Below, piece by piece: positions 33,529 to 57,728 of a DNA stretch of 64,000 nucleotides. The translations under genes were made by a program, and so were the position numbers. The notes under the pieces are model-generated. The model was not told where the DNA came from, did no database searches, and saw only the letters and a program-made list of their open reading frames with translations. How positions within the stretch are numbered: the first letter of the stretch is position 1; each line of letters starts with the position of its first letter. The DNA is from Eledone cirrhosa. Taxonomy: Eukaryota. The stretch lies in NCBI GenBank assembly GCA_964016885.1, contig OZ024749.1, positions 806,001 to 870,000 of the forward strand, given 5' to 3'.

Positions 33529-34179
33529 AGTCTCATTTTAAAATCTTAACATGCTGTACCACATGAAACTGCATTATCAAGACATTCTTGAAAAGTATAA
33601 AACAGTACTATGACCGCATCACACTAAAAAATTAAAGTCTTTTCTCTAATAAACATTTTATCAATATAATCGTAATCTACACTCTTGAAAATATATCTCT
33701 GTAAAGTTTCATTACACAAATATGTTTTATAGACAAATTTACGAGGAGGCAAAATTAAGTGGTGGAGTTTAACTGTAGTTGCTTTGTTGATTGATATGCC
33801 CTGTTCCGAAATGTCTTGTTTTCTCAAAGGGCCGGTGTCACAAGTATGAAAATACACTTTTGACAGGTGCAATATGTTCGAACACGGAAGAGCCAAACTC
33901 TCACCATCATCGCCCCCATCTCTCTCATCTTCCCCATCTCTCTGTATAGTGAGCAAATGGGGTCCCACATACTGGCTGCCCCACAGCCCCGGCGGGAAGA
34001 ATGGAGAAAGTGTTTCTCCGGAGGATGGTAAGGGAGATGCGCTGGAAGAGCCATTCCATCTCGTGAGGCTCACACCTGCGGCTGGTCAGCTCATTTTTAC
34101 AATTTGTCCACTGGTAAAGATGCTATAAACATTTGAATTAACAAACTCATTTGTGTGTGTGAGTATGTATGTATATATA

Positions 34180-34790
34180 TCGTCATTATCATCACTGATT
34201 TTACGTCCATTAATCCATGCGCATGGGTTCGACAGGTCTTTTTTCAGCGCAGCATCTCTCCACCGTGTTCCTTTGTCATCTCAGCAATTTGAGATCAGTT
34301 CTCAACACTTCGTCTCAGGTTTTCCTTAGTCTATCTCTACTGTGGTTTCCTGCTACTGGGATTTCCTGGCACATCTTCACCCAGCAATCATCATCCATAC
34401 ACATCACATCTCCATACCAATGCCGTCTTCTCTTTTGCACACCACTTCAGATTCTTCATAAACCCAGTTTCTCCCTCAGTTTATCCAAACTCATCAATTC
34501 ATCCTTTCTCTCACATTTACATTGCACATCCAATGAAGCCTGGTTGCTTCATTTCCCTCCAATCACTGCCCATGTTTCACTACCATGCAGTATCGCACTT
34601 CGCACACAAACATCATAGTCATCCTTTTGTAAGTAGGGAGAAACCTTTTGATGTCAACATTGGGAGTAGCTCTCTAAACTTCTTCCATCCTATCTTTATT
34701 CTAGCTATTATGTTCTCAGGGCACCCTCCTCTGGCTGCTAATTAGGTCACCTAGATAGCAGAAGCTATCAACCAAGTTCTATGGATCCTT
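34180..34790 (-). mobile_element. Older RTE-family fragment
   Basis: FCYLGDLISSQRRV...LHGSETW...WYGDVM on the minus strand. Confidence 0.7.
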
Positions 34791-35469
34791 CCTGTGACGC
34801 TCTTCCACTTGTTTACCATTGTGCATCTACATACCAAGTCCTCCTCAACAACATTGATGTACACACTTTCCATAGGAGTGTATCATCATCATCATCATCA
34901 TCGTTTAACGTCTATTTTCCCTGTTAGCATGAGTTAGACGGGTTGTCATGTTTGAAGCAAGTCAGGTGAGGTGACAGTGTCATATTCATACAGAACTGCT
35001 ACTGACTTGATCTCTACATTTGGATGCCCTTCCTAATGCCAACCACATTTACAGTGAGCACGGTGCATTTTGTCATCACACTTACAGACCGCTTGAATAT
35101 GCAATATGTTTATGTATAATAAACATGAGTTTTGCTGTGAATATTTTAAAATCTGTGACCATGTCACAGCTATCTCTCTCTTTTACTAGTCAAGTACTGT
35201 ATAAACCTCTAAATATTAGAGAACCAATAATTAAACTATTTATATAAGTTTGCCCTAAATGTAAATGATCCTCTCCCACCAATGTTTTATATACAAAAAC
35301 CATATCAGTTTTAACCTTTTTTTATTTCAGTAGTGAGAAAATGTCACTGATGATGGATAAAAATCCAGAAATAGCTGATATTCTCACTGCTGCTGAGAGA
35401 GCTGTCATATGATCACAGCTTTCAGAAATATCAGAGCAAAACTCTTGTGTGTATATTATACATAAACAT

Positions 35470-36298
35470 TGGCCACGTGATGCGTATGAAAGACGACAGC
35501 TGTATAAAAAAGTGCAGGGCGATCAAAATTGATGGTAGTTACGGAGTAGGTAGACCCAGAAAAACCTGGGACGATCTAATAAATTCCAACCTTACACACT
35601 TGCACCTCTCTAAGACAATGTCACTGGACCGAGATCTTTGGCGCTACGCAGTAATACAGAAGACCTGCCTTGCCTATGTACAAAGCGAAACCTACAGTCA
35701 GTAGGCACCTCTTAACCAAATATACACCCCAATCCACTACCCTACCCTATCCTCCCACTCCCACCAACAACACCCTCTCTCTATAAAGTTGGTACCACAA
35801 CATCCAGTCCAAATAAATGAGATAATTGTTTCTACTTTTGGCACAAGGCCAGCAATTATCCCAGTGTATTACTGGTACTTTATTTTATCGACCCCGTAAG
35901 GATGAAAGGCAAAGTTAACCTCGGCAAGATTTGAACTCAGTCCGTAAAGAGACGTAACTGTGCTGCAAATCATGGCGCCCGACCCTCTACTGATACTGCC
36001 AATCCACCGCCCAAATAAATGAGATAATGAGATCGAGATAGTGTAGGTGTCACGACAAAAAACACACAGTCCACGCTGTAATGTGGCCGTGTAGGTAACA
36101 TGGTAAAAAGTTCCCAGTTCCACACTGTAAATGTGGTTGGTGTTAGGAAGGGCATCCAGCTGTAGAAAACCTGCCAGATAGTCCTATATGAGCAAGACAC
36201 GGTCACCCAACCAACCTTGACTCAAATTGGGACAACTCCCGTCTAACCCATGCTAGCGTGGAAAATGGACGTTAAACGAAGATGATGATGATGATGAT
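35470..36298 (+). mobile_element. Short 3' RTE copy interrupted by a SINE
   Basis: GHVMRMKDDSCIKKC plus 3' UTR and tail. Confidence 0.85.
35827..36010 (-). mobile_element. Full SINE with 18-bp TSD (CCAAATAAATGAGATAAT)
   Basis: TSD at 35809-35826 and 36011-36028. The empty site is visible in the RTE copy at 33241. Confidence 0.9.
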
Positions 36299-36597
36299 TG
36301 TTATAAGCTTTCATGTACACTCCTATAATGAACCATATTATGTTAATGCCACTTCCTATGTATTCATTTTTATACAAGTGTCTTGAATAACGCTGGTTTT
36401 GGTGAGGAAAACACTGACTATATAAGATGTAGGGCCACTGTATCAGCTGTTCAAATACAAATGGAAGCTTTCTAACATAAATGTTTGTAAGAAACATTTG
36501 TTAAGTTCTAAACACCAGCTGAACAATGAAAAAGTTATTTTACCAAATTCTCTTAAAATTCCCGTTTATTTATATACAATGACTGCTACTTCTACAA

Positions 36598-36875
36598 ATT
36601 GAGAGAGCACAGCTCCGATACTATGGACATGTGGTTAGAATGTCTCAGGAGAGAATTGCTGGACAGATTTTACGGGAAACACCAACAGGCAGGAGACCCA
36701 GGAGTAGACCCTGAGCAAGATGGTTGGATAACAACCATGAGCTTGGCTGGTCTTGCTTGGGGATCCAGCCAGATCAGTTGGGGACAGTTGCTTCTGACAG
36801 GACCCGCTGGAGGGAATATTTAAGGTCTCTGCCTCCACGACCCTCTCAGGAATAACTGGACAAAGAAGAAGAAGA
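36598..36875 (+). mobile_element. 3' end of another RTE-like LINE with (GAA)n tail
   Basis: RAQLRYYGHVVRM...GRRPRSRP. Confidence 0.65.
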
Positions 36876-37432
36876 CTTGTACCATGGTAAAGTTTAGGGC
36901 TTGGGTATAAAACATTTCAGACCAAGTTCATTTAGATGTCTTCAATTAAATTAACAACTTCGATAATAAACTACCCTTGGTTCTATAATAATTAGCTCTT
37001 TATTTCAATATTGTTATATTTTTATTTTAAAACATTTTATCATAAGCTGTGCACGTGTAAAAATGAAAAAAATGTTTATATTACTAAATCCCTCCAAATT
37101 CTTGATTTTCAAAACTATTTGAAAATAATTTCCACCCATCAACTTCATTGAAGTCTTTAAGGCAAGCTTGTTTCATTTTCTAGCTTGACAAACTCAAACT
37201 TTCATTATGTTAACTTTTTGGCCTTATCAACAGTCAGGTTTAGAATTTCTGCATACTTCAACCATGGATTTCAATATCTTCTGGTTGGCAGTGTATTTCA
37301 TAAGAAATATAGTAACAAAAAGGTTAATGTCTACAATAATGTTTTAAAATAGTAAACAGAGTTTTTGCATTGAAATTATTTTCTAAATTTTCTTTTTATA
37401 TTCCATTTTCTCCAGATACTACCGAATACAAG

Positions 37433-38590
37433 ATGGACTCAACAAAACCGAACCAACAAATTACTAACCTTGCTACCTCAGTAGATCATTTTACATCAAT
37501 TCTTTTTCAAAGTGTAGCTACAGGAACCAATGAAAATGTCTTCATGTCACCATTCAGTGTTGCTACAGTTTTATCAATGGTTTATTTAGGAGCAAAACAA
37601 AATTCTGCCAAACAGTTGGAAGATATTTTGAAGATAACTTCAACACCAGATTCTTTAGGTTTGGCTTTTAAAGAATATTTTTCAACGTTGAAGAACACAA
37701 ATGAACATATCACATTTAATTCAGTGAATCATTTGTATGCTAATGAAAAATTCCATCTTTCAGAAGATTACAAGAAGAATATTTCAAAATATTTCTCTTC
37801 GGCTATTGAAAATGTAGATTTTATGAAAAATCCAGAAAAAACAAGAGTTGATATCAATGAGTGGGTTAAAAGTAAAACAAATAACAAAATCACTGATTTG
37901 TTACCAAGTGGTAGTTTGACAGCTATGACAATGTTGGTCCTTATTAATGCTGTTTATTTTAAAGGAATCTGGGCTGAAAAATTCCCAGAACAAGGAACAT
38001 CATCTAGAGAGTTTTATTTAAGCTCTAGTTCAAAAGTACTTCATAATTTCATGTATATATCTGAAGATTTCAATACAAAGGTAGACGAGACATATAAAGT
38101 TGTAGAGCTACCTTATATAGGAGAGACCTTTAGTATGTTTGTAATTCTTCCCAATGAAATCAATGGTCTTGCTGACTTAGAGAAGGAAATTAATGCACAA
38201 TTTCTCAAAGATATTATTGACAGAAAAGGATTCCAAATGTTATATCTAGAATTGAATATGCCAAAATTTCGTTTAGAAAGCAGTTTTCAGTTGGCTGATA
38301 CTTTGAAAAAGCTTCATCTTTCTGACATTTTTGATGGCAATAAAGCTGATTTATCTGGAATGACTGATGGTCAAAATAATATATATGCAAGTGAAATGTT
38401 TCATAAAGCATTTGTTGATGTTAATGAAGAAGGAACGGAAGCTGCAGCTGCAACTGGAATGGTGATGACACTAATGTGTGCTCAAATAGGCTTGAAATTT
38501 GATGTTAACCATCCATTTATGTTTCTGATAGTTGACACCCAAGCTAAAATGATTCATTTCATTGGTAAAGTAACGAATCCTACAATATAA
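37433..38590 (+). CDS. Serpin copy A (intracellular, clade-B/leukocyte-elastase-inhibitor-like), 385 aa, single coding exon; predicted P1-P1' Met-Cys
   Basis: Motifs ENVFMSPFS, INEWVKSKTNNKI, LINAVYFKGIW, hinge EEGTEAAAAT and C-terminal FDVNHPFMF. No signal peptide. A polypyrimidine tract and CAG acceptor end at 37415 just before the ATG at 37433, so the TTG start in the ORF track is intronic. Confidence 0.95.
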   Translation: MDSTKPNQQITNLATSVDHFTSILFQSVATGTNENVFMSPFSVATVLSMVYLGAKQNSAKQLEDILKITSTPDSLGLAFKEYFSTLKNTNEHITFNSVNHLYANEKFHLSEDYKKNISKYFSSAIENVDFMKNPEKTRVDINEWVKSKTNNKITDLLPSGSLTAMTMLVLINAVYFKGIWAEKFPEQGTSSREFYLSSSSKVLHNFMYISEDFNTKVDETYKVVELPYIGETFSMFVILPNEINGLADLEKEINAQFLKDIIDRKGFQMLYLELNMPKFRLESSFQLADTLKKLHLSDIFDGNKADLSGMTDGQNNIYASEMFHKAFVDVNEEGTEAAAATGMVMTLMCAQIGLKFDVNHPFMFLIVDTQAKMIHFIGKVTNPTI

Positions 38591-38877
38591 GATGATATTT
38601 GCCCTGTTCAAGATTGAAGATGTTTCCTCCAAAGTCACATAACATTATCTCAACACCTTAGCTGAGTAAATATATTTAGAAGTTGCTTTAGTTAAATAAC
38701 TGAGGTCATTATATTATGCTGGACCTAGGTGATACTTTCCCAAAGAAAGATTATGAAATAGCTTTAATATAAAACATAACTAGAAATACTTTACATCTTC
38801 AGCAAAATATTACATAATCTGAAATATATTCTATAAACATGTTTTTTATTTGAAAATTATAAATAGTGTGAAAACAT

Positions 38878-38981
38878 TCCTGCCGAGGTTAACTTTGCCT
38901 TTCATCTTTATGGGGCCGATAAAATAAAGTACCAGTAATGTACTGGGTAATTGCTGGCCTTGTACCAAAAGTAGAAACAAT
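38878..38981 (+). mobile_element. 5'-truncated SINE in the 3' flank/UTR of serpin A only
   Basis: SINE 3' half; absent at the homologous position in copy B (~50905). Confidence 0.85.
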
Positions 38982-41061
38982 TATTTAAATAAAGTAAATT
39001 GAATATTTATGTTTTATTTCAATTGTTTATTTAATATTCTAATGTTATCTATGTGTGCGATTTAGTTGCATCTGGCCTTTTTGAGTTTCATTTTTAACCT
39101 AGATGTCCTTCCTAACGCCAACCATATTTCAGTGTGAACTGGAAGCTTTCTTTGTACACAGGCACTACCACATTACAGGGTGGATTGGGTACTTTTTGTC
39201 ATGGTACCAACACTACCACACTACAGGCTGAATTGTGTGCTTTTTGTCATGGTACCAGCACTACCACTTTACAGGGTGCATTTTTGTAATTGAGGTAATT
39301 AGGGTAAGGGATTGCATTTGTTATTTCATGAAACCTTTGCTGAGTATCAAGTTGTTTTGAGCCTTCAGTTAAAAACAAACACCGCCATCAATTCCTGTTT
39401 CTCGTCCTCCAAGTATAGTAAATGTTGTGTCTACATTAATGCTTCTCTCCTATTCTCGCCTACCCGTATTTATTCCCTTTCTTTCATTACGCGTAACACG
39501 TTCCAGCCACTTATTGACCACTCATCGGACAATCACACACAGTCTTCATATTGATTGGTTCGCCCGCCCAATAAGACCTGGGACACGCATGTGAACGTGA
39601 CACTATACTCTGTACATCGTGCTTTGCTTGTGGCTCCGTGCCATCCTGCGTACAGTTATACTTACGTTGTTTAATACAACTTCCTACCGTCTTTACACTT
39701 GTTCTTACTTGGGAACCCGTACACAACAGTAACCAAAACATATTCAAAGTAAGGGACATAATTCAATTCTCTTCCGATGCTCATTTCTAAGTTGTCTCCC
39801 TTGGCTTCTCGACACTTTTTTGTTTTTGCTTGCTTGTTATCTAGTAGTCGACGCTAATACCAAGACCCCCACAAGAGAGGATAAAGTTGTTTCAATTAAA
39901 CTAAAGATTGTTAATATAAGGCCGAGGATCTTAAAGAAAGTTACCACCCGACTCAAGTAGTCAGCGACCTGCATGTCTTGATATCCATGGAATTCATGCT
40001 ATTTGTCTCTAATTTCTCTGAAATTTGTGTTGTTCAGTGTACAGCATCAATATTGCAAGGTATCTCTATATTTTCAATATTATCCTCTGATGTTGAAATC
40101 TTGCTAAGGTCAAGATTGTCTTTCATCCTTCTGGGTGTCAGTAAAATATAGTACTAGGGTTGATTTCATCAATTTTGCTGGTTCCTAATTAGAAATCAAT
40201 GTTATCTTCTAATTCTAACAGTTTTCTATAAATGCCTCCACCATACCAGTATTTCTGCCATGTCAACCTATGCCAAGAATTTCGCAGCTTCAGTTTGACA
40301 ATTCTTATGTATTTGGACATATATTTATTATTGCTACCAACCAGAAAGATAATGTTGCTACCCTTTATTTCCAAGCTTGACTTTAAAACATCTGCTTAAC
40401 TGTAATTACTTTTACTCTTGTACACTCTTTAAAGTGGTTAGTGATAGGAACAGCATTCAACCATAGAAAAACCTGCCAGACAAAGCGACAGGAGAACTCT
40501 TCAGCTGCATCAGTAGACATGACAACTTCCATAGTGCTGGTGCTGTGATAACATACACTCAGTAGAGTATGGTAATGTAGGTGTAGGCGATGTCTGAACA
40601 TTCAGTAGAATGTAGGAACATATGTGAGCAGGATTTGAACTCAGAATATGAAAAGCCAGAACAAATATCGCAATGGAACTTTATCTGACGATCTAACAAT
40701 TCTGCCAATCCACCACCAGAGTTTCTAATATTGCTGATTTATTGAGGACACAACCTCTTCTCTAGTACTGGTTATCATGATAAAATGTACTCAGTAATGT
40801 CTCTAAAGTGACTGATAGTGGAAGGGCATCCAGCCTTAGAAATCATTACGAAATTAGATTTGAGGGCAACAGGGTGCCCTTGCCTGACAAGGGGGTAGTA
40901 ACCATCAGTAATTGCAAAGATTGATTTTCGAGGCAAATTTAAGCAAAAAGTTGTTAATCATCGAAATGGATGACAAAATCTATGATAACAGCAATAGGCG
41001 TGCCTGTCTGGTGAAAAGGATACTCACAATGTGGTTCTAGGTTCAAACATGCTGGAGACTT

Positions 41062-44000
41062 TTCTTCTACTATAGCCTTGGCTTGACCAAGTGTCTTCTA
41101 TAGCCTTGATTTGACCAAGTGTCTTCTATAGCCTTGGCTTGACCAAGTGTCTTCTATAGCCTTGGCTTGACCAAGTATCTTCTATAGCCTTGGCTTGACC
41201 AAGTGTCTTCTATAGCCTTGGCTTGACCAAGTGGCTTCTATAGCCTTGGCTGGACCAAGTGTCTTCTATAGCCTTGAGTTGACCAAGTGTCTTCTATAGC
41301 CTTGAGTTGACCAAGTGTCTTCTATAGCCTTGGCTTGACCAAGTGTCTTCTATAGCCTTGGCTTGACCAAGTGTCTTCTATAGCCTTGAGTTGACCAAGT
41401 GTCTTCTATAGCCATGGCTTGACCAAGTGTCTTCTATAGCCTTGAGTTGACCAAGTGTCTTCTATAGCCTTGGCTTGACCAAGTGTCTTCTATAGCCTTG
41501 AGTTGACCAAGTGTCTTCTATAGCCTTGAGTTGACCAAGTGTCTTCTATAGCCATGGCTTGACCAAGTGTCTTCTATAGCCTTGAGTTGACCAAGTGTCT
41601 TCTATAGCCTTGAGTTGACCAAGTGTCTTCTATAGCCATGGCTTGACCAAGTGTCTTCTATAGCCTTGAGTTGACCAAGTGTCTTCTATAGCCTTGGCTT
41701 GACCAAGTGTCTTCTATAGCCTTGAGTTGACCAAGTGTCTTCTATAGCCTTGAGTTGACCAAGTGTCTTCTATAGCCATGGCTTGACCAAGTGTCTTCTA
41801 TAGCCTTGAGTTGACCAAGTGTCTTCTATAGCCTTGGCTTGACCAAGTGTCTTCTATAGCCTTGAGTTGACCAAGTGTCTTCTATAGCCATGGCTTGACC
41901 AAGTGTCTTCTATAGCCATGGCTTGACCAAGTGTCTTCTATAGCCTTGAGTTGACCAAGTGTCTTCTATAGCCTTGAGTTGACCAAGTGTCTTCTATAGC
42001 CTTGGCTTGACCAAGTGTCTTCTATAGCCATGGCTTGACCAAGTGTCTTCTATAGCCTTGAGTTGACCAAGTGTCTTCTATAGCCTTCGCTTGACCAAGT
42101 GTCTTCTATAGCCTTGAGTTGACCAAGTGTCTTCTATAGCCATGGCTTGACCAAGTGTCTTCTATAGCCTTGGCTTGACCAAGTGTCTTCTATAGCCTTG
42201 AGTTGACCACGTGTCTTCTATAGCCATGGCTTGACCAAGTGTCTTCTATAGCCTTGAGTTGACTAAGTGTCTTCTATATCTTGGCTTGACCAAGTGTCTT
42301 CTATAGCCTTGGCTTGACCAAGTGTCTTCTATAGCCTTGGCTTGACCAAGTGTCTTCTATAGCCTTGAGTTGACTAAGTGTCTTCTATATCTTGGCTTGA
42401 CCAAGTGTCTTCTATAGCCATGGCTTGACCAAGTGTCTTCTATAGCCTTGAGTTGACCAAGTGTCTTCTATAGCCATCAGTTGGCCGAGTGTCTGCTATA
42501 GCCTTGAGTTGACCAAGTGTCTTCTATAGCCTTGGCTTGACCAAGTGTCTTCTATAGCCTTGGCTTGACCAAGTGTCTTCTATAGCCTTCGCTTGACCAA
42601 GTGTCTTCTATAGCCTTGAGTTGACCAAGTGTCTTCTATAGCCTTGGCTTGACCAAGTGTCTTCTATAGCCTTGAGTTGACCAAGTGTCTTCTATAGCCT
42701 TGGCTTGACCAAGTGTTTTCTATAGCCTTCGCTTGACCAAGTGTCTTCTATAGCCTTGGCTTAATCAAGTGTCTTCTATAGCCTTGAGTTGACCAAGTGT
42801 CTTCTATAGCCTTGGCTTGACCAAGTGTCTTCTATAGCCTTGAGTTGACCAAGTGTCTTCTATAGCCATCGCTTGACCAAGTGTCTTCTATAGCCTTGAG
42901 TTGACCAAGTGTCTTCTATAGCCTTGGCTTGACCAAGTGTCTTCTATAGCCATGGCTTGACCAAGTGTCTTCTATAGCCTTGAGTTGACCAAGTGTCTTC
43001 TATAGCCATGGCTTGACCAAGTGTCTTCTATAGCCATCAGTTGGCCGAGTGTCTGCTATAGCCTTGGCTTGACCAAATGTCTTCTATAGCCTTGAGTTGA
43101 CCAAGTGTCTTCTATAGCCTTGGCTTGACCAAGTGTCTTCTATAGCCTTGAGTTGACCAAGTGTCTTATATAGCCTTGGCTTGACCAAGTGTCTTCTATA
43201 GCCTTGGCTTGACCAAGTGTCTTCTATAGCCTTGGCTTGACCAAGTGTCTTCTATAGCCTTGAGTTGACCAAGTGTCTTCTATAGCCTTGGCTTGACCAA
43301 GTGTCTTCTATAGCCTTGGCTTGACCAAGTGTCTTCTATAGTCTTCGCTTGACCAAGTGTCTTCTATAGCCTTGGCTTAATCAAGTGTCTTCTATAGCCT
43401 TGAGTTGACCAAGTGTCTTCTATGGCCTTGAGTTGACCAAGTGTCTTCTATAGCCTTGAGTTGACCAAGTGTCTTCTATAGCCATGGCTTGACCAAGTGT
43501 CTTCTATAGCCTTGAGTTGACCAAGTGTCTTCTATAGCCATGGCTTGACCAAGTGTCTTCTATAGCCATCAGTTGGCCGAGTGTCTGCTATAGCCTTGGC
43601 TTGACCAAGTGTCTTCTATAGCCTTGAGTTGACCAAGTGTCTTCTATAGCCTTGGCTTGACCAAGTGTCTTCTATAGCCTTGGCTTGACCAAGTGTCTTC
43701 TATAGCCTTGAGTTGACCAAGTGTCTTCTATAGCCTTGGCTTGACCAAGTGGCTTCTATAGCCTTGAGTTGACCAAGTGTCTTCTATAGCCATCAGTTGG
43801 CCGAGTGTCAGCTATAGCCTTGGCTTGACCAAGTGTCTTCTATAGCCTTGGCTTGACCAAGTGTCTTCTAATACAGCTTTCAGTTGACGAAGTGTTTTCT
43901 ACTAAAGCCTTGGGTTGACCAAATGTCTTCTACTATAGCTTTTGTTGACCAAGTGTCTTCTAATATAGCCATGGCTTGACCAAGTGTCTTCTATAGCCTT

Positions 44001-44255
44001 GGCTTGACAAGGTGTCTTCTAATATAGCCTTCAATTGACCAAGTGTCTTCTACTACAGCCTTCACTTGACCAAGTGTCTTCTACTATAGGCTTGGATTGA
44101 CCACATGTCTTCTAATATAGCCTTCGTTGAAGAAGTGTCTTGGACTATAGCCATCAGGTGACCAAGTGTCTTCTACTATAGGCTTGGGTTGACCAAGTGT
44201 CTTCTAATATAGCCTTCAGTTGACCAGTGTCTTTTACTACAGCCTTCAGTTGACC
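41062..44255. repeat. 28-bp minisatellite (CCAAGTGTCTTCTATAGCCTTGGCTTGA), ~110 units, with 31-bp units at the edges
   Basis: Direct periodicity; edge units carry an extra CTA. Confidence 0.95.
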
Positions 44256-45025
44256 AAATGTTTTTGTTCCCGTTCTATTTTATGGTATTCTCCACCATCA
44301 CTAGGAATCAAGAAAAATTTAGCTCACCTTTTCTTCAATTCTCTTGATAAATGTATCCCAGAAACATATAAATATAGTAGAATTTTTAATAGACATACAA
44401 TTAAACTCTCTATGAATATTGTCCAAAATATAGCTAAAATCAATAATAGAAACCTTGTAACTATTCATACGGAATTAACACCTGATGATAATCACTAAAA
44501 GAATAAATAATTTCTCAGTTAGCAACAATTATACCAATAACATAGATGATGAAAACCTTATGAACTACGAATACAGAGTGGCATCATTAAATAACAGCGT
44601 AGGTAATTGTAATTATAAAAATAGTTATTCTTGCCCATTAATTAATAAGACTCTTGACTGTAATTTAGTTTGCAAATGCATTGTTAAAACAAAAGATAAG
44701 TCTTATAATTATATTGGTGCCATTTCCTCTCAATTTAAAGAAAGGTGGTATAATCACTGCCACACGTTCAAAAGAGAAAACAAGAGATTTAGTACTGCTT
44801 TATCTGAATTAATTTGGTCACTTAAAAATAATAATATAGAATATTTTCTTTCTTGCACAACTTTCTAATGCTTTACCTTATATAAATTCTTCCATTTCTA
44901 AGAGTTGTAACATATGTACCACTGAAATTCTTTATATTTTTAATAATAGGAAAATAATTATTAATAAAATATCTGAGATCTTCAGCTCATGCCTCCATTG
45001 ATTCTCAAAAACGTTCCATAGTTAA
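44256..45025 (+). mobile_element. Penelope-like element relic (post-RT region + GIY-YIG)
   Basis: RSILWYSPP, IFNRHTIKLS, CPL...YNYIGAISSQFKERWYNH...STALSELIWSLK...CNIC. Confidence 0.8.
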
Positions 45026-46459
45026 GTTTTAAAATAGATAATATAATAGTGAATATTCCTTTATATATAGTTTTTAATTCTTGCCACTGCCTATTCTCGA
45101 ATACATTTAGAGTTTTTAGTTAAGCTTTATATATATATATAAAATAATAAGATAGGTATTACTCCTTTATATATAATTTTTAAGTGATTGTGTTACCTTT
45201 ATTTAAAAAATCTAGATTATATGACAAAATAACTAATTTTTCAATCTACTTTAGCTTTAGGTTGTATTTAAATAAATTAAATTTAATATAAATTGATAAA
45301 TTCGGCGATAATACATACATTTTTTTCTCTCTAAATAGTTACACAAAGTATGTACAGTCTCTCCTATACTACTTAAATAAGATTGTTGAATTGATAAATT
45401 TTACCTCAGTAATTATTTCCCTTCTTTTGAACTAAATAATTTACCTCATAACATTATAACCTACTCAGTTATATATAAAAAAAACATATCAATTATCAAA
45501 TACTTTTCTACTCAATAATTTCAAAATCTAATTATACATAAACAAAGATAACTTACCTACAAATTCTGTAATTCAAATTCTTTCCCCCTTATTATATTTT
45601 CTAAATACTACTTTCATTTCCTAGAATATTTTTTCCTTTGATATAATATATAATATATAGACTGAATAATGGTCAACTTTTGTTTTGTTTTTTGACCAAT
45701 CTAATTACGCTGTATTTTAAATAATTTGATAAACATTTAAACCAACTGTAATTATTCTCCCAGTCACGTAACCTCCTATGTTTTTTCCTATTCATATGCT
45801 CGGTGGTCACATTATACATCTCCTATGTATTGTGTGCTCTTATGTATTCATATGCTCGGTGAACAAATTATACATCTCCTATGTATTGTGTCTGAGGAGG
45901 ACGTGTTGTGGTTTTTGTTATACATAAAACTTTACATCTTCGAAGTATATATCTTTTGTTTATTACACACACACATATATCTTCTACACGTCTGTTGTTG
46001 GTATCATGAAGTTGCCCCTCCAGCTCACATATCCAGCATTGTCATGTGAAGTTCCCTTGCCTCCAGCTTAGTATCCTTCAGTGATGTTTGGTCTCTCAAC
46101 TTGTCTGCATAAATCTGGTTTCTAGAGAACTCTGCCAGCAGGTCCATTGTAGGGTTTCACATGTCCAGCTAATGCAAGCCTCCATTGCCCTTTGATGTCA
46201 GAAAGGTGAGGATGTAAACCATAGAGCAATTTATTTCCTACATGTACTGCTCTAGATCTTTCTCAGCATTTACATGTATGTGCCATTTATCTTTGTGTGG
46301 GTTTTTGTTAATGTCCATGATTCACATCCATAGAGGACAAATAGGTTCAACTGTTGCTTTGAATAGCCTCATTTTCATTGTTTTTGTGTTTGGAGATACC
46401 CAGACTTTTGATAGGGAATTGAGAGCTCTCTCGTGCCTTGTCCATCCTGCTGATATCCC

Positions 46460-46990
46460 AGCTGGGCATCTCTCCTAAATTGATTATATAACTTATAGGA
46501 AACGATGGAGAAACATCATGATCGTCATGTGGAGCAGAGTGAGGAACCTGGAATGTTCCACACTGAACTTGGTGTTGGAAGACTCGAATATCTTGGTATT
46601 CTCCCAGGAGGATGTGACGATGAGAATATCATCCACATATCTAGTGAAGAAAGTGCACGTATCGCAAGAGCTGAGTACTCTGCGTTCGAATCTGTTCATG
46701 TAGATGGCCAGTAAACCCGACAGGCTGAATCCTATGGATAGTCCCAAGGCCTGTCAGTAGGTTCGGCCCAGGAAGCTGAAAAAGGCGTTGACAATGCATA
46801 GGAGCTGGTATGTTGGTGGTGGTGAGACCGAAACAATCCAGGTTGTTGGAACCAACACATTCAGTGAGTATGTCCACAGCTGGGGGTACAGGTATCGATG
46901 TGAATAGGGATACTATGTCTAGGCTGAAGGTATACCTGTTGAATTTGCAGGTCAGATTCCTTACTGGCTTTAAGTGGTCATCTAGCAGAC
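46460..46990 (-). mobile_element. Penelope-type RT fragment
   Basis: SLDIVSLFTSIP...GLSIGFSLSGLLAIYM...FTRYVDDIL. Confidence 0.78.
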
Positions 46991-47387
46991 CAACTACACA
47001 CGCACACCTTTTACTCCCTTACCCTGTTCCCCACTACATATATCATATGTGGGTATGGTGTGGCGTGCGGTGGCCGGAAGCTGGGGAGTGCTCGACCGGA
47101 AGAGCCAGCAGATCGGCCTCTCTCTAGTGGTGACCAGGAACGGTGTGGACGCGAGTTTTGGCAGCTCCCGGTGTTAATGAGTTGGACGCACATGGAAGAG
47201 GAAAAACCAGCAATGGGATTTAGCGGCGTCTATGAAAAGCGGTAAGTGAGATAGCTTTTTCTAACCACATCATACACATACTCTAACACGTTTCCTTACG
47301 CAGATGCACAAACACTAAACTTTAACGTTTTTTCATTCATTCAAGTTAAATTGAACAGCCACCCACGGCTTCCCTTTTAATAATAAT

Positions 47388-47552
47388 TGTTTCTACTTTT
47401 GGCACAAGGCCAGCAACTAATTCAGTGCATTACTGGTACTTTATTTTATCGACCCCGTAAGGATGAAAGGCAAAGTTAACCTCGGCGGGATTTGAACTCA
47501 GATCGTAAAGGGACGTAACTATGCTGGGAAGCATGTCCGACCCTCTACCGCC
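47388..47552 (-). mobile_element. tRNA-derived SINE copy
   Basis: Same family as 846-1027. Confidence 0.85.
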
Positions 47553-48194
47553 ATAATATAATATAATGACCAGTATGTAGATTTAGTTGAGAATTTTAGT
47601 GTTGACATATATGAAATAAATAAAGGTAAAGTAAAAATGAGGTTGGAGATGACCATTAAGTAAACAAGGAATACATCACAAGTTTAAAATAAATGGTACA
47701 GAATTAGAAACAAAGGGCAGAGAAAAAAAACACAGGAAGAACAAAAAAGTGGGATGTGCGAAAAGTATCAACACCTAATATATCTCACAAAATTGATAGT
47801 TGTACAGAGATAGAATATAAGAAACGTATAAAAATTATATATGCAAGGAGGAAATGGAGGAATTCCAAAGAAAAAAAGTAATGAGGCAAGGCACGAGTCC
47901 TATCGTGATGTATTCAGAGATAAAGCGCCCTCTTCACAGTCTCTGACCATAGCACTAGTATAATGGAGAGAATGAAGTATTAGGTACTTTTTTTATAGAA
48001 ATTTAGGACTCAGAATAGAAATAGACCCTAATAGGAAAATTATTAACTTTTTAGACACTACTTTAATACTCCTACCACAAACCTAATGAAAAGCTAGTAT
48101 ATGTTAATGCTAAGGCCAACCATCCTAGGTCAGTTATCAAGGCCATAGTTAAGAAGATAGCGAGTTAGGCTTTTATACCTACTCCCTTCTAATT

Positions 48195-48690
48195 ACTGAA
48201 GCTGGTGCATTACTGCCACAGCACCTGCAATTCTTGCACTTAATTCAGCCTCTTGCCTTCCATCACCCGTGAACACGGCCCCAAGATACTTGAACTTCTC
48301 TACCTGCTTCAGTGGAACTCCATTTACATGTAGAGTACACTGCACAGGCTTCCTTGAGTGAATGTGTCTGTCTTTGCAGCACTGATTTTCATTCCAGCCA
48401 TGCAGCACTTGGCATCAAACCTATCAAGTCTAAGTCGGAGATCACCTGTCATCTGTAAATTCCAGCTGACTTTTACACCTGCAGGCCATACCACATCCAA
48501 CCAGCTACACATGTCAATCCTGTTCATGTAAATAACAAACAAGAGAGGTGTCACTATGCACTCTTGACAGTCTGACTCCCACATGGTTTTGATTTAGTAC
48601 CATTTACTCAAACTTTGGCATTTGTAGAGCGACATCAGAGCATCAAGGTGACCATTGATTCCATACTCCTGCAGAACCCTATATAGCAGG
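48195..48690 (-). mobile_element. Decayed RTE-like RT fragment
   Basis: PLLFVIYM...LKQVEKFKYLG. Confidence 0.65.
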
Positions 48691-49472
48691 ACCCCAAAAA
48701 GAGGTGAGATGTATATGTACATATATATATGTGTGTGTCTGTATTCACATTTGTATCTATGTTTATGTCCCAAAACTTAAGAGGTTTGCAAAAGAAAAGA
48801 GAGATTGATAAAATAAGTATCAGGGTTGCTATGATTGACTAAATCAAAGCAATGTCCCAGCATGGTCTTACTGAAACCAGTGTAAAAAAATAATAATAAG
48901 TTATGAGGATACAAATTCAGTATGGAGGCACTAAACTGTAGATATACCAATAAATAATCAATAGTTCTGGGATCATGGGGATGATTGATTGGGTCTAACT
49001 TCTGAATATTTTGGAAGGGAAATATTTAAAAACTTTTCACTCCATTCTCCTTTTAGAAACAACCCCTTTCACTTCCACACATTTGGTTGAAAGCTTACCA
49101 CGTGTTGTTATTTCGGTGAACAGAAATGACACGACAGGGAATAAATAAAAAAAAATGCCATACTTTCAGCTTGGAAGAAGAAATAATAAAAGAAAAAAAA
49201 AAAAGATGGTTTAACTCCAAATTTGGTAATCTTTTGTTTTAAATATTACAGAAGAGAAAGAAGAAAATGAAATAAACCAGCAATAATTGGCAAAACTGAA
49301 TGGTACTTAAATTATTGTTGTATGTAAACTACAAATTATTTATTAGTGAAATATGAAAAAAAGATTATGCCTCAAAAATGTCTTGTCCATGGGTTGGACA
49401 AGACATTTTTGAGGCAGTGGTTTTATATGTCCAGTTCGTTGGATGATTTCAATTTAATATTTTTAATGTTAA

Positions 49473-49677
49473 CCCTTTAGCTTTTACATTACTCTATATA
49501 TACTCTTATATTTTCATGGTAAATGCTTTACCTCACATATTAAATCTATGAGATTTTGATATTAATTATTTTGAGAACAATACCTTAACATCAGTATGAG
49601 CAGCTGCTTATGGCTGGTTTGAACAGAAAGAAGTGAGAGAATTCTGGCCGGATACGGCTGGTTTAAATGCTAAAGGG
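49473..49677. mobile_element. piggyBac-type MITE
   Basis: TTAA-CCCTTTAGC...GCTAAAGGG-TTAA. Confidence 0.85.
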
Positions 49678-51180
49678 TTAAGAGTGATTGGCAGAATTAG
49701 TAGAGCGTCAGAGAAAATAGAAAACAATATGGTCAGATAATGTTAAACTGTTCAACAAATGATAGATTTTTTTTCTTTTATACTGCAAGTAAGCTTTTTA
49801 ATATTACATTCACAATGTTGGTGGATTGATAGAATTGGTAGAGCATCGGGTGGAATACGAGTGTGCTATTTGTTTTAGCTCTTTAAATTCCACCAAGAGT
49901 CAACTTTGTTTTTCATCCTTCTGTGAAGTATTAAGGTTGATTTAAGTTTCAGCTAACCCCATTCATTGGTTTTGTGCCAAAATAAGAAATTAATATTTAG
50001 CTTGGTACATTGAGGTGGATTGGCAGAAATGGTAGAGCATCAGTTTGTTCTGTCTTTTAGCATTCTGAATTAAAATTCCACTGAGGTCACCTTTGTATTC
50101 CATCCTTCTATAGTTACATTGAGGCCACCTTTGTATTCCATCCTTCCATAGTTACACTAAGGTTACCTTTGTATTCCATCCTTCTGAGGTTGATAAAATA
50201 AAGTACTAATTAATTACTGGGGTTGATTTAATCAAATTTTCCACATCTCTAAATCTACTGACCTTGTGCCTAAATTAGCAATCAATAGTTAGGTTAATAA
50301 TGAATCAGATGTAAGTGCTCAATGTTCTCACATGAAATATACCATATATAGTTGTAAAGAAGCCGAGAAATGTGGGACAAAAACACCAATATTAGGGGAG
50401 GGGGCCCATAATCAAGGTCAATATTTTGCCAATTTTCACCAACTTCAAAATTCTATGACCAAGGAAACTTGTATAATACATGCTAAACAAAGGGTCAAAG
50501 GACTCTTCAGGTGTATCAAAGACATGACAACCTCCCTAACGCACTCTGTAAATGTCACATGCTGGCATCTAGGTGCATTTTATTGGGGTACCAACATTAG
50601 CTAATTTACAGTGTACTAGGTGCATTTGTGGCATCAACACTGCTACAGTGTACTAGGTGCATTTGTGACATCAGCTCTACCAAATTACAGAGTGTGTTGG
50701 GTGTATTTTATTGTGACACCAGCACTACTACAGAATGTACATAATAATTTAATATTTCGACTGAGATAACATATAAACAACTGAAATAAAAAAAAATATA
50801 TATATATATAAAGACCAGATGCAACTAAATCGCACACATAGATAACATTAGAATATTAAATAAACAATTGAAATAAAACATATAAACATTTAATTTATTT
50901 TATTTAACCAGTAAATACCACACTATTTATAATTTTCTAATAAAAATACATGTTTATAGAATATATTTCAGATTATGTAAAGTATTTCTAGTTATGTTTT
51001 ATATTAAAGCTATTTCATAATCTTTCTTTGGGTAAGTATCACCTAGGTCCAGCATAATATAATGACCTCAGTTATTTAACTAAAGCAACTTCTAAATATA
51101 TTTACTCAGCTAAGGTGTTGAGATAATGTTATGTGACTTTGGAGGAAACATCTTCAATCTTGAACAGGGCAAATATCATC

Positions 51181-52338
51181 TTATATTGTAGGATTCGTTA
51201 CTTTACCAATGAAATGAATCATTTTAGCTTGGGTGTCAACTATCAGAAACATAAATGGATGGTTAACATCAAATTTCAAGCCTATTTGAGCTGACATTGC
51301 CATCATCACCATTCCAGTTGCAGCTGCAGCTTCCGTTCCTTCTTCATTAACATCAACAAATGCTTTATGAAACATTTCACTTGCATATATATTATTTTGA
51401 CCATCAGTCATTCCAGATAAATCAGCTTTATTGCCATCAAAAATGTCAGAAAGATGAAGCTTTTTCAAAGTATCAGCCAACTGAAAACTGCTTTCTAATC
51501 GAAATTTTGGCATATTCAATTCTAGATATAACATTTGGAATCCTTTTCTGTCAATAATATCTTTGAGAAATTGTGCATTAATTTCCTTCTCTAAGTCAGC
51601 AAGACCATTGATTTCATTGGGAAGAATTACAAACATACTAAAGGTCTCTCCTATATAAGGTAGCTCTACAACTTTATATGTCTCGTCTACCTTTGTATTG
51701 AAATCTTCAGATATATACATGAAATTATGAAGTACTTTTGAACTAGAGCTTAAATAAAACTCTCTAGATGATGTTCCTTGTTCTGGGAATTTTTCAGCCC
51801 AGATTCCTTTAAAATAAACAGCATTAATAAGGACCAACATTGTCAGAGCTGTCAAACTACCACTTGGTAACAAATCAGTAATTTTGTTATTTGTTTTACT
51901 TTTAACCCACTCATTGATATCAACTCTTGTTTTTTCTGGATTTTTCATAAAATCTACATTTTCAATAGCTGAAGAGAAATATTTTGAAATATTCTTCTTG
52001 TAATCTTCTGAAAGATGGAATTTTTCATTTGCATACAAATGATTCACTGAATTAAATGTGATATGTTCATTTGTGTTCTTCAACGTTGAAAAATATTCTT
52101 TAAAAGCCAAACCTAAAGAATCTGGTGTTGAAGTTATCTTCAAAATATCTTCCAACTGTTTGGCAGAATTTTGTTTTGCTCCTAAATAAACCATTGATAA
52201 AACTGTAGCAACACTGAATGGTGACATGAAGACATTTTCATTGGTTCCTGTAGCCACACTTTGAAAAAGAATTGATGTAAAATGATCTACTGAGGTAGCA
52301 AGGTTAGTAATTTGTTGGTTCGGTTTTGTTGAGTCCAT
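51181..52338 (-). CDS. Serpin copy B, 385 aa, inverted paralog of copy A; predicted P1-P1' Met-Ser
   Basis: Same serpin motifs. The protein differs from copy A at 4 residues (one M/L plus three in the RCL). Splice acceptor precedes the exon start at 52355. Confidence 0.95.
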   Translation of the reverse strand: MDSTKPNQQITNLATSVDHFTSILFQSVATGTNENVFMSPFSVATVLSMVYLGAKQNSAKQLEDILKITSTPDSLGLAFKEYFSTLKNTNEHITFNSVNHLYANEKFHLSEDYKKNISKYFSSAIENVDFMKNPEKTRVDINEWVKSKTNNKITDLLPSGSLTALTMLVLINAVYFKGIWAEKFPEQGTSSREFYLSSSSKVLHNFMYISEDFNTKVDETYKVVELPYIGETFSMFVILPNEINGLADLEKEINAQFLKDIIDRKGFQMLYLELNMPKFRLESSFQLADTLKKLHLSDIFDGNKADLSGMTDGQNNIYASEMFHKAFVDVNEEGTEAAAATGMVMMAMSAQIGLKFDVNHPFMFLIVDTQAKMIHFIGKVTNPTI

Positions 52339-52614
52339 CTTGTATTCGGTAGTATCTGGAGAAAATGGAATATAAAAAGAAAATTTAGAAATTAATTTCA
52401 ATGCAAAAACTCTGTTTACTATTTTAAAACATTATTGTAGACATTAACCTTTTTGTTACTATATTTCTTATGAAATACACTGCCAACCAGAAGATATTGA
52501 AATCCATGGTTGAAGTATGCAGAAATTCTAAACCTGACTGTTGATAAGGCCAAAAAGTTAACATAATGAAAGTTTGAGTTTGTCAAGCTAGAAAATGAAA
52601 CAAGCTTGCCATAA

Positions 52615-52833
52615 CCCTTTAGCATTCACATTACTCTATATTTACTATTGTATTTTTGTCGTAAAGGCTTTATCACATAATTATCCCACATAATATCAAA
52701 TTTATGAGATTTTGGTATTATTTATTTTGAGAACAATAATTTAACATCAGTATGAGTAACCAGTTATGGCCAGTTTGAACAGAAAGAGGTGAGAGAATTC
52801 TGGCCGGATGTGGCTGGTTTAAATGCTAAAGGG
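52615..52833. mobile_element. piggyBac-type MITE upstream of serpin B only
   Basis: ATAA-CCCTTTAGCATT...AATGCTAAAGGG-TTAA; a single TTAA empty site is present in arm A (~37157). Confidence 0.88.
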
Positions 52834-54319
52834 TTAAGGATTTCAATAAAGTTGATAGATGGAAATTATTTTCAAATAATTTTGAAAATCAAGAATTTGG
52901 AGGGATTTAGTAATATAAACAATGTTTTCACTATTAAGTTAAGGTTTCCAAACAAAAGTTTGTTATATTCAATTCTGGTTGTATGAAACAAAACCCATTT
53001 TAATGGGTTCCAATTTAAATAAAAAATCTTCCAACATAATTTCATACAAGAACCATACGATAAGTTACAATATTAGTAATGAAATAAAAATAATTCTATT
53101 AAATCCTTCACAATTCTTCATTAATTAATTGAAATAGAGAGTATTTCATTAAAAATATGGTAAAAAAAAAAAAAGCGCTAATTAAATATATATTAATGAG
53201 GACATTAAAATTTCCACCAAAGATAGAGAAGAAAAACAAAAACCTGGTGGCAATTCTTACCCTCAGTACTCCACTCAGTTCATTAAAACATTTTAGAATC
53301 CTTGTTATATATATTTAGGAGATGGGTTTATTGAAGTTTGGGGCCATATGTGTTTTATTTGTTTCTTAATTCTAGATGAAGCTGTAGGGGGCCATCCAGA
53401 GTGTCTTGGGCAGTTTTAACCCTGGCAAAGTCTATCTCTCTCAATGTTAGAACATGGTGGGATGGACAGGTTTTCACAGACCAAGACAGTACTTGCTCAT
53501 ATACTTATAATATATCCTCATCAACATGTTCTCTTTGCCAGCAAAGATTAGACAGGTCTACACAGACCAAGTCCAAGACTTGCTCACATACAAACTTCAT
53601 CAATGAAATAAGCTGTTCATGAAATTAATGTTTAAGTGGCTGAGCATCACATAGAAACGTGCACCCTTAAAGTAATTTTTATGGAGATTCAGCATAAATC
53701 ACAGATACAGTCCACCTGATGGGCTTCCAAACAGTTTCTGCCTACCCTATTTTACTCACAAGATATGGGTTTAACTGAGGCTAGAGTGAACAATTGTTGC
53801 CTTAGATGTGTATTACTTTCGTGGGACTCATTATGTGGATCTTGTCACCAACGCTAACATTAGAAAGAGACTGCATGTTTGGCTAACATGTAGTGCTGAG
53901 ATCTTCCCATGGAATAATACAGAGACTATGACTATTGATACCACTGGAAGGTGGGGTGCATTAGCAGAATTGTTAAAGTGTGAGACAAAATGTTTTGCAG
54001 TATTTAGTTATGGCCTTTTACATTTTGAGTTCAAATCCTGCTGAGATCGATTTTGTTTTTCATCCTTCAGGGGTCGATAAAATAAAATACCAGTCTTATA
54101 CTGGGGTATGAGACTAAGACACCTGAAACATCACTTGATTAACTTGTGACCGAGTTATTATTAAGGCAATTTTTTTTAGACCCTAAAAATGTTTATACCT
54201 TATATAGACCTAAAGATATAAACTTCAGTTAACTGAAGATCTTTATTATTCATAAAAAAAAACAGCATCAAGTGATAAAATCCAAACTATTTACATATTA
54301 TACACTGCTGTAATATAAC

Positions 54320-54505
54320 TGTTTCTACGTTAGGCACAAGGCCAGTAATTACCCAGTGCATTAGTGGTACTTTATTTTATCGACCCCGTAAGGATGAAAG
54401 GCAAAGTTAACCTTGGCGGGATTTGAACTCAGAATGGCAAGGGCCGTAACTCTATACGTCAAAGCATGGCGTCCGACCCTCTACCAATACTGCCAATCCA
54501 CCGCC
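54320..54505 (-). mobile_element. Full SINE with 16-bp TSD (ACTGCTGTAATATAAC)
   Basis: TSD at 54304-54319 and 54507-54522. Confidence 0.9.
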
Positions 54506-54624
54506 TACTGCTGTAATATAACATTTCACATTCTCGGGAGAAAGAAACTCTTAGTATTTTATGGAACATTGAAATACTATGCTCAACACTAGTTGGTGTA
54601 GGACACTTAAACAAGATATTGACA

Positions 54625-54910
54625 GTTTTCTATTTGGTACAACCCCACTTCAACAGAACTGTATCAACACCAATAGCTAGGACTTACTTTAAATTGTTAA
54701 ATAAACACTTTCCCACACAACATAGGTACTACACTTTATTTGATAGGAACACAATTAGACTTTCCTACTCTACTACACCCAACTTAGCTCAACACTACTA
54801 AAGTAAATAGGCCTACTACCTCTGAAACCCAAACCTGGACAGGAGCCTTGTGTAATTGCCATAATAACGAAGTGTGCCCACTTGAAAACAAATGCTTGAT
54901 GAATGACATC
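54625..54910 (+). mobile_element. Penelope-like fragment
   Basis: FKLLNKHFP...LFDRNTIRLSYSTTPNL...CNC...CPLENKCL. Confidence 0.7.
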
Positions 54911-54992
54911 GTAAAAAATATAATATGTATAAATAAATATTATATATTTTTTATTTTACTATATTTGTATATATGTATCATTTGATATTTAA

Positions 54993-56158
54993 TCCTCAAC
55001 CACCCGGCTTCTCAACACCAACAGCTGATCGACCTGTTCCCAGAGTCCTTCCCTTCCATCGCGGTCCTCCCCCGTCGGCTTGGTGCTCCTTAGGAGCCCC
55101 AATCACAGACCTGGCCTTCGAGTCAATCTTCCAATCAAAGATGGTTGGCCTTGAGCAGCTGCTGAGGAATATCGAAGTTATCGAACCCCATCAAAGTTTC
55201 TTTATACTCAGGAACTACTTGTCTATTCCTAAGCTTCTGTATCTGCTCAGGGTCAGCCTCTCTCACAGATTTCCGTCCCGCCTCCAACGCTTCGACGACC
55301 TAATCTTCGAGAGACTCGAGTGCCTGGTCAATGTTAGATTCTCTCCAGAGTCCCGCGATTTGGGGGTCTTTGTCTTCGTAAGTGTTCGTCACCCTCTCTC
55401 CCCTACTTCCTTTCCTCCACCCTCGTGAGCAGCATCCTCTCCTCTCCAGCATAGACTAGTTCCAACAGGGAGCTGGGTGAAGCTCTCCAGCAATGGAGTG
55501 AGTTGGGCTTGTCTCTTCCTGAGAAGGTGGAGGACAGTCGAAGTCAGAGAACTTGGGACAGCATAAGTTCGAAGGCCACTTTCGTCTCCCACTTCATCCA
55601 ATCAGATCAGTTTGCAAGGTGCCGCTTACTATCTGCCAGCACCAAATACTCAGGCGACTGGGTCGATGCCCTACTCGTGGCCTTCTGAGCCTGGATGAAC
55701 TTCGTGTCTCCATCACCCTCAGAGTGGGAGCTGACGTCTGAATGGTTTTGAGGTGCCGATGCGGCAAACTCCTTGACTCCACAGTCTTTCTAGCCGCCTG
55801 AATGCCGGCCGCTTTGCGCGTCACACGGAGCTAAACCTCATTCTGAAGAGAGCTTTGGCCCAGGCGAATATCCCCTCAGTCTTGGAACCATCTGGGTTGT
55901 CCAGAAGTAACGGCAAAAGACCTGACGGTCTTTCCCTGTGCCCCTGGTCGAGAGGCAGGTGCCTTGTCTGGGACATCACTGATAGCGACTCTTTTGCTTC
56001 TTCCCACATCCTGGATGCTGCAGTTAGGGCGAGAGCCACAGCTTCCACAGCCAAGCAGAGTAAGACCCTCAAATACTCTGATCTGTCAGCCAGCTACATT
56101 TTTCAGCCTGTGGCTTTCGATACGTTTGGGGGTGTCGGGGCGCTGACTGCGGGGTTCC
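54993..56158 (+). mobile_element. CRE-like non-LTR retrotransposon C-terminal relic (restriction-like endonuclease)
   Basis: LGAPI, PKLLYLLR, SGDW, H..LN.ILKRAL, EPSGLSR..GKRPDG...WDIT...KY...FQPVAFDTFG. Confidence 0.78.
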
Positions 56159-56159
56159 T

Positions 56160-56819: not shown

Positions 56820-56865
<46 letters not shown>

Positions 56866-57137: not shown

Positions 57138-57180
<43 letters not shown>

Positions 57181-57685: not shown

Positions 57686-57728
57686 GGTTTTATAAATATA
57701 GTTTCCATTTATATATATATATATATAT

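Follow-up and report, generated by a model that had tools for sequence, protein, structure and literature searches.

The stretch of the Eledone cirrhosa genome analysed here (64,000 nucleotides of assembly GCA_964016885.1, contig OZ024749.1, positions 806,001 to 870,000; hereafter the window, with positions counted from its first letter) carries two nearly identical serpin genes, A and B, which face each other in an inverted duplication of about 16 kb (Table 1). Half of the nucleotide differences between their coding sequences are confined to a few codons of the reactive-centre (bait) loop.

Table 1. Features of the serpin locus (positions in the window; the bar in loop motifs stands between P1 and P1')
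Feature	Position	Strand	Remarks
Serpin copy A	37433..38590	+	Entire serpin domain in a single exon; 385 amino acids from the first ATG; loop GMVM-TLM|CAQIG
Serpin copy B	51181..52338	-	385 amino acids from an internal ATG; loop GMVM-MAM|SAQIG; exon start at 52355, past the splice acceptor
Loop codons P3-P1' of A	38468..38479	+	Thr-Leu-Met|Cys; contain 6/12 of the A/B differences
Loop codons P3-P1' of B	51292..51303	-	Met-Ala-Met|Ser; loop type present in read contigs X1 and X4
First intron of B	52356..64000	-	In-window part of a 19.2-kb intron; leads to the signal-peptide-like exon beyond the window end
Left arm	22921..39080	+	37-bp satellite; block 25286-29391; private repeat-rich segment 29392-37057; serpin block 37058-39080
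Right arm	50810..64000	-	In-window part, running to ~67737 past the window end; private segments 52937-56158 and 56486-62098 (the latter containing a LINE-type frame of 1037 codons)
Spacer between arms	39081..50809		11.7 kb; 28-bp satellite 41066-44206; no N gaps
A-only repeat insertion (~110 bp)	38871..38984		Isolates the 96-bp block 38985-39080, 4.2% diverged
B-only element (~220 bp)	52615..52833		Terminal inverted repeats, TTAA site; empty site in A
760-bp element	26149..26908		Same place in both arms (partner ~64202-64962); third copy ~73 kb upstream

Both proteins match the serpin domain PF00079 over its full length (profile positions 3-370 of 370, 364 bits versus a cut-off of 27; E 9e-109 for A), and the best Foldseek match of a structure model of A (predicted local distance difference test 73, predicted template modelling score 0.77) is SCCA1 (2zv6, template modelling score 0.87, E 7e-39); the loop, residues 332-351, is unstructured in this model and of low confidence. 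The hinge of inhibitory serpins follows a consensus of the E-E-G-T-E-A-A-A-A-T type with small residues at P12-P9. Both copies have EEGTEAAAAT at P17-P8, which aligns with the hinge of SERPINB3/B4. Judged by domain match and hinge motif, A and B are serpins with an inhibitory-type hinge, and the serpin identity given in the original prediction is thus borne out. Loop positions were numbered from the EEGT hinge (P17 = E332 and P1 = M348 in both copies), P1 being assigned by hinge counting only. Vertebrate clade B (ov-)serpins lack a cleavable signal peptide, and their coding region is divided among several exons. A and B do not share these traits, as a single exon encodes their domain and B gains a signal-peptide-like exon by splicing; their best sequence matches in the PDB are SERPINB3/B4 and antithrombin, with near-equal scores. 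Related proteins named 'serpin B / leukocyte elastase inhibitor-like' owe this label to similarity.

Direct alignment of the two coding sequences (1158 bp each) gave 12 mismatches and no indels, with both 385-residue frames intact. The six mismatches in the loop are packed into 11 nt (38469-38472 and 38478-38479), where they change the codons at P3, P2 and P1' (ACA/ATG, CTA/GCA and TGT/TCA in A/B) by two letters each and replace all three residues (TLM|C versus MAM|S). Outside the loop there are five synonymous mismatches and the replacement M165L. The by-eye comparison in the original prediction, which had counted about 12 differences with six in the loop at two per codon and the remaining six or so scattered and mostly synonymous, proved accurate in all these respects. 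An even spread of the differences, named there as an outcome that would speak against a distinct loop, is ruled out by the alignment, since six mismatches fell within 11 nt or less in 0/200000 random placements of 12 differences; the binomial P of the cluster is 5e-4 even assuming a background divergence of 10%. Outside the four loop codons, synonymous divergence (dS) is 5/229.7 = 0.022 and nonsynonymous divergence (dN) is 1/916 = 0.001, which marks the scaffold as being under purifying selection; for as few as 12 differences, such a direct count is equivalent to a sliding-window dN/dS. The codons TCA and TGT cannot be interconverted by two amino-acid-changing steps, as one path leads via a stop codon and the other contains a synonymous step; going by the codons, the change at P1' of A includes a silent step or is a doublet mutation.

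The two arms of the duplication are a mosaic of differently diverged blocks. In successive blocks, whose limits were chosen after the data had been seen, the arms differ at 3/3300, 8/290, 7/327, 10/103, 1/272, 6/1146, 2/261 and 4/96 positions, with 4/10 differences of the 103-bp block falling in its first 15 nt. The core blocks (3/3300, 1/272, 6/1146 and 2/261) are 0.1-0.8% diverged and the isolated arm edges 4-10%; for the blocks that are isolated by insertions (7/327, 4/96, 10/103), the comparison of edge and flank yielded a Fisher P of 2.5e-6. One of these, the 103-bp block 52834-52936, is cut off by the B-only element and is 9.7% diverged from its counterpart in A (37058-37160). The A-only and B-only insertions are younger than the duplication. 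The 760-bp element, which is 99.7% identical to its distant third copy (99.5-99.7% among all three), is a young mobile element insertion common to both arms; it ends in a short A run and has no terminal inverted repeats. A single recent duplication would leave the diverged isolated blocks unexplained; an older duplication followed by gene conversion between the arms would account for both the isolated diverged blocks and the presence of the 760-bp element in the two arms. The original prediction had ascribed the likeness of the scaffolds to recent duplication or to arm-to-arm conversion. Of these, conversion fits the block mosaic, and a fresh duplication would not account for the 4-10% diverged edges. 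Weak homology between the private segments (36300-37060 versus 52930-53960) did not exceed that of shuffled sequences. The outer ends of both arms consist of the same 37-bp satellite (22930-25001 and ~66004-67737), and the duplication breakpoints may lie within or next to it.

The nearest database proteins are from Octopus and Argonauta, with 71-76% identity, a distance that would place the genome among octopods other than the O. vulgaris/O. sinensis/O. bimaculoides group. Loops were compared with 25 loop types from Octopus and Amphioctopus (P0001-P0056 minus P0010 and P0017-P0024; incomplete loops skipped). From P7 to P5', A is one residue away from Octopus GMVMTLMSAQIG (P0027 of O. sinensis; P0032 and P0035 of O. 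vulgaris) and four from GMVMMALSAQIG, and B is one residue away from GMVMMALSAQIG (P0013, P0029, P0031 and P0033; O. sinensis, O. vulgaris and O. bimaculoides) and two from the T-L type. At the protein level, at which alone this comparison holds, each copy is thus identical to its matching Octopus type at 11/12 positions (TLM|S for A, MAL|S for B), compared with 9/12 between A and B. The loop of Argonauta hians P0010 is GMVMMAM|SAQMG, and because it shares MAM|S with B, the loop state of B is likely to be ancestral. Four of the six loop changes of A yield the T-L motif, which is present in Octopus paralogs whose scaffolds are ~78% identical to A. The suggestion that the loop had been rewritten by recent positive selection is therefore not supported in this form: B keeps the Argonauta loop and the T-L of A already exists in Octopus.

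The scaffolds are related in a different manner. A tree without the loop was built from 42 rows, in which the fused models P0030 and P0044 were each represented by their first domain and P0029 and L003 were omitted. A and B form a clade in it (100/100), with the nearest Octopus rows 0.27 changes per site away. Between the TL and MAL scaffolds of Octopus, identity is 95.7-97.8%, and between these scaffolds and A/B it is 77.6-78.9%. With 18/42 rows, the approximately unbiased (AU) test rejected a forced clade of the TL types (p-AU 7.7e-8) as well as one that joins B with MAL (p-AU 5.6e-12). Scaffolds thus group by lineage and loops by type. Teshima and Innan 2008 reportedly described such a peak of divergence between paralogs under interlocus conversion; A and B resemble it in that outside the peak the paralogs are closer to each other than to their orthologs, and inside it the orthologous types are closer, the latter at the protein level.

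The 385-residue open reading frame is not the full coding sequence of B, as a signal-peptide-like exon is spliced onto it. An exon scan placed this signal-peptide-like exon of 76 nt (25 codons plus 1 nt; donor G|GTAAGT) at window-equivalent positions 71675-71600 on the minus strand (G000:C9:877600-877675); it has one genome match, is single-copy and sits outside the duplicated arm. A contig of read run X4 departs from the serpin exon at 52358 with the letters of this exon, and the junction is in frame with B. The exon's hydrophobicity and the existence of like exons in Octopus proteins suggest a role as signal peptide; some forms of the Octopus relatives have an N-terminal signal peptide and others are signal-less. 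Because the duplicated arm stops ~3.9 kb short of this exon, A has no copy of it, and no convincing signal exon was found in the 137 kb upstream of A among 17 candidates, 12 of them listed. B would thus be secretable, and A, without a signal exon, would be cytosolic if expressed. In X4, the main contig stops at the splice acceptor (52356) and the contig with the signal exon has apparently about half the depth (estimated from bin depths), which hints at a second 5' exon giving a signal-less form. The intron of B also contains an open LINE-type (long interspersed nuclear element) frame of 1037 codons (58171-61284, minus strand) that is private to the right arm and that, judging by its motifs, would encode an endonuclease plus reverse transcriptase; fragments of its family are scattered across the window.

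Runs X1 and X4 each provided one contig over the coding sequence, at a flat depth of 14.1 and 120.6, respectively, and with the loop of B. Both carry A-type letters at coding positions 84, 309 and 493 and B-type letters elsewhere, as would be expected of variants shared between the copies, and bubble collapse gives the same picture. In these Logan contigs variants are collapsed, and only the presence of a sequence can be read from them; moreover, X1 may be the assembly's own sample, so it is not independent, and X4 is unlabelled and was taken as RNA solely from the splice junction. Support for the A loop comes from the assembly and from its similarity to relatives rather than from reads. At 51307, X4 has an additional silent change that is likely allelic; RNA editing was rejected as its origin, as the coding strand shows G-to-T and not A-to-I.

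All counts of serpin copies in the E. cirrhosa genome given here are lower bounds. A protein search returned four matches among 12 candidates, namely A, B and two serpins at 44% and 27% with unrelated loops; both matches of a DNA search (2/2) were A and B, and a hinge-loop pattern had two matches. The genome-wide collection of paralogs for which the original prediction had called thus leaves only A and B as near-identical copies, plus two distant serpins. Neither a third close paralog nor a donor for micro-conversion was found in the assembly by these protein, DNA and pattern searches; the notion that the loop had been patched from another paralog would accordingly call for a donor since lost, which is possible. 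Besides A and B, two single-exon serpins are located on the same contig (L003, G000:C9:53570046-53571173; L004, G000:C9:29289210-29290298), one with an inhibitory hinge and the loop AVAMNR|CAM, the other without the hinge and likely non-inhibitory. An exact match to either A or B is absent from the protein collection searched, a search for short loop-bearing proteins retained 1/1291 candidates, and a search of representative sequences revealed no close octopod sequence beyond P0015.

The explanation that we favour, with modest confidence, is that the loop types T-L and M-A already existed before the lineage of E. cirrhosa separated from Octopus, that conversion between the arms evened out the scaffold and that selection kept the loop difference; all three components are what we infer from the patterns above. 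Under this scenario the two loop types are likely to be older than the split, gene conversion likely homogenised the scaffold, and selection would reject those conversion events that erase the loop difference. The Ser-to-Cys change at P1' of A was likely a later, lineage-specific step, and the A loop may have persisted in place or may have been pasted from a since-lost paralog, either course being compatible with the data. At least one silent step in the loop is obligatory, and by analogy this would be the kind of signature that Ohta attributes to conversion plus selection (PMC3966226). Several observations weigh against an ancient origin of the loop difference. There is no silent shoulder: 38273-38468 and 38480-38737 (~208 neutral sites) contain no differences at all. 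In a rough single-lineage simulation that used geometric tracts, discarded events touching the loop and took the best of four rates from 150-300 runs per cell, zero flanking differences had a P of 0.12, 0.04, 0.04 and 0.0025 for an ancient protected loop with mean tracts of 30, 100, 300 and 1000 bp, and of 0.14, 0.11, 0.06 and 0.04, respectively, for a young loop. The 760-bp element in both arms suggests that kilobase-long tracts do occur; with such tracts and no shoulder, an ancient loop that stayed in place would also require tracts of a short or patchy kind, unless a paralog since lost had supplied it as a micro-patch. A second candidate trans-species type, T/S-N-Y|M (P0002 of O. bimaculoides and P0001 of O. 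sinensis), narrowly escaped rejection as one clade at the 0.05 level (p-AU 0.051), and the scaffold of P0002 groups with a same-species paralog carrying another loop. The A loop is found in neither the X1 nor the X4 contigs and A expression is unsupported there, absence from such variant-collapsing contigs not being evidence of absence; and a search for loop codons in runs of relatives (X5 and X10, 2/16 runs of other organisms) gave, among the pieces listed, no loop cover in X5 and one gapped, different loop in X10.

Convergence, the alternative nearest to the original prediction, is possible though doubtful: in a MAM|S gene that had been duplicated moderately long ago, A would have fixed T, L and C by positive selection, its match to the Octopus T-L type would have arisen independently, and conversion or youth would keep the scaffold alike. 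The lack of a shoulder beside so sharp a peak favours a young loop, by a factor of about 17 for tracts averaging 1 kb and of ~3 or less for tracts of up to 300 bp. The P1' Cys of A is absent from the three TLM|S relatives and private to A among TL types. Of 16 other loop classes, three have T at P3 and three have L at P2; the probability of chance convergence to both, 0.035-0.04 as calculated from the other 15-16 classes, is low and yet not negligible. Fast loop change after duplication has also been documented in SERPINB3/B4 and rodent clusters (PMC4136820, bioRxiv 2025.01.07.631777). On the other hand, convergence requires that A, with the frame unchanged in other respects, arrived at the same two adjacent residues as its nearest Octopus type (~4%), and it requires six substitutions, at least one of them silent, while the scaffold gained a dS of 0.022. 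It is improbable that A represents a partial duplicate, silent or in decay, whose loop cluster goes back to a single mutational event affecting several bases (a template switch, for example) and has no function under selection: the end of the duplication short of the signal exon, the failure to find a convincing equivalent upstream of A, the missing A-loop contig in the spliced run X4 and the contiguity of the loop changes (4 nt + 2 nt) would all be in keeping with it, but the frame of A is intact with one amino-acid change versus five silent changes outside the loop (conversion could also preserve the frame), and the cluster falls exactly on the bait codons and recreates an Octopus loop type. 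Inverted repeats of 4-5 bp were noted by eye around both loops, but such short stems are common and a template-switch origin was set aside. An assembly artefact, with A and B being alleles of one locus set side by side or the A loop a consensus error, appears very unlikely. The single B-loop contigs of X1 and X4 and a core divergence of 0.1-0.8%, which we would place within a plausible allelic range, point in this direction; yet no N occurs in the 264 kb examined around the locus, the arms lie in opposite orientation, their outer flanks are unrelated and the spacer between them is distinct, the contigs are variant-collapsed, and errors are unlikely to recreate a motif of other species. Building on the favoured explanation of old loops in a homogenised scaffold, we tentatively put forward a wider and rather speculative idea, namely that octopod bait-loop 'cassettes' outlive the genes that carry them: T-L and M-A would have formed an 11-base island since before the Octopus split, in a scaffold that diverged at ~22% of residues between the lineages and was overwritten within each, and the partial duplication would have split localisation into a secretable M-A and a signal-less T-L form.

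Both copies would act as suicide inhibitors with Met at P1 against elastase- or chymotrypsin-like proteases, targets that P1 Met suggests because antitrypsin uses Met358. Leu at P2 and Cys at P1' would shift or widen the targets of A, by analogy to SERPINB1, in which the adjacent residues Phe343/Cys344 serve as two sites for two protease classes (PMC11327461); a differing specificity of A and B may thus be expected from their loops. Transcripts of serpins have been reported from O. vulgaris haemocytes (PMC4199593), and a 'Serpinb10' of the gastric ganglion is upregulated as the load of Aggregata increases (PMC5736919); we do not claim orthology of either to A/B. With SERPINB1 and alpha-1-antitrypsin, A and B share the serpin fold and the inhibitory hinge; the P1 Met of B is like Met358 of antitrypsin, and the adjacent-site use of SERPINB1 can serve as a model for P2 Leu/P1 Met of A. 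They differ from both in their single-exon domain plus signal exon and are only ~25-35% identical to solved serpins. The original prediction had also proposed a difference in oxidation sensitivity between the two baits. Its P1 part does not hold, as Met at P1 in both copies means that P1 oxidation cannot distinguish A from B.

That serpin loops diverge has been recognised since the 1980s-90s, and Hill and Hastie 1987, Ohta 1994 and Barbour 2002 are said to have dealt with hypervariable reactive centres, which occur in the rodent SERPINA1/SERPINA3 clusters and in human SERPINB3/B4. Like these rodent and human genes, A and B are paralogs with a like scaffold and a differing bait loop. In contrast to them, P1 is unchanged and the loop types are common to another lineage rather than lineage-specific, and A and B are known from sequence; their scaffolds are 99.7% identical, compared with 92% overall for SERPINB3/B4 (PMC4136820). 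Hypervariability of the loop, with Ohta's account of conversion followed by selection, is treated in PMC3966226, functional divergence of tandem serpins has been described for SERPINB3/B4 (PMC4136820) and woodrat SERPINA3 (bioRxiv 2025.01.07.631777), and insect serpins diversify via splicing and duplication (PMC10513286). Divergence peaks under interlocus conversion, reviewed in PMC3924837, include red/green opsin exon 5, RH exon 7 (PMC3966226) and the Drosophila block Pre28 (PMC2588116). These published peaks are as wide as an exon or a 200-bp window, whereas that between A and B spans 11 nt, lacks a silent shoulder and holds at the protein level only. No report of loop diversity or conversion in cephalopod serpins was found in the literature searched, most subscription journals being outside its scope. 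A and B are a real and sharp example of a known phenomenon, to which they add the sharing of loop types across lineages and the B-only signal exon.

The pair represents a natural two-protein experiment, with one difference in the scaffold, three in the loop and the same P1, from which effects of P3, P2 and P1' on specificity could be read directly. If the loop types were inherited across octopods, clustered amino-acid changes in near-identical paralogs can be old preserved variation and not recent positive selection, and the locus would be an unusually narrow test case for conversion-versus-selection theory. In addition, the pair draws attention to a diversified and as yet undescribed group of clustered serpins in Octopus, annotated as 'leukocyte elastase inhibitor-like / serpin B-like' (XP_029647967-73 and XP_036367074-82 of O. 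sinensis, CAI9736902-13 of O. vulgaris, XP_014778358 of O. bimaculoides), with Argonauta hians P0010 as a further relative. This cluster has the same TL and MA loop types and likewise includes signal-peptide and signal-less forms; it differs in that Octopus has many paralogs on one chromosome and E. cirrhosa two near-identical inverted copies, again a lower bound, with Cys at P1' of A. Several of the 25 loop types have insertions of 2-3 residues and basic or Cys-rich baits, on scaffolds that are mostly 89-99% identical within the O. sinensis/O. vulgaris cluster. The serpin cluster of Octopus and Amphioctopus is thus a larger and richer case than the A/B pair. Furthermore, the same 23-residue signal peptide opens P0001, P0033 and P0038 of O. 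sinensis, which are named isoforms X1-X3 of one gene, as well as P0002 and P0003 of O. bimaculoides, despite the different loops SNY|M, MAL|S and VGF|C; this suggests either one signal exon that is spliced to alternative whole-serpin terminal exons or a mis-assignment of reads during annotation.

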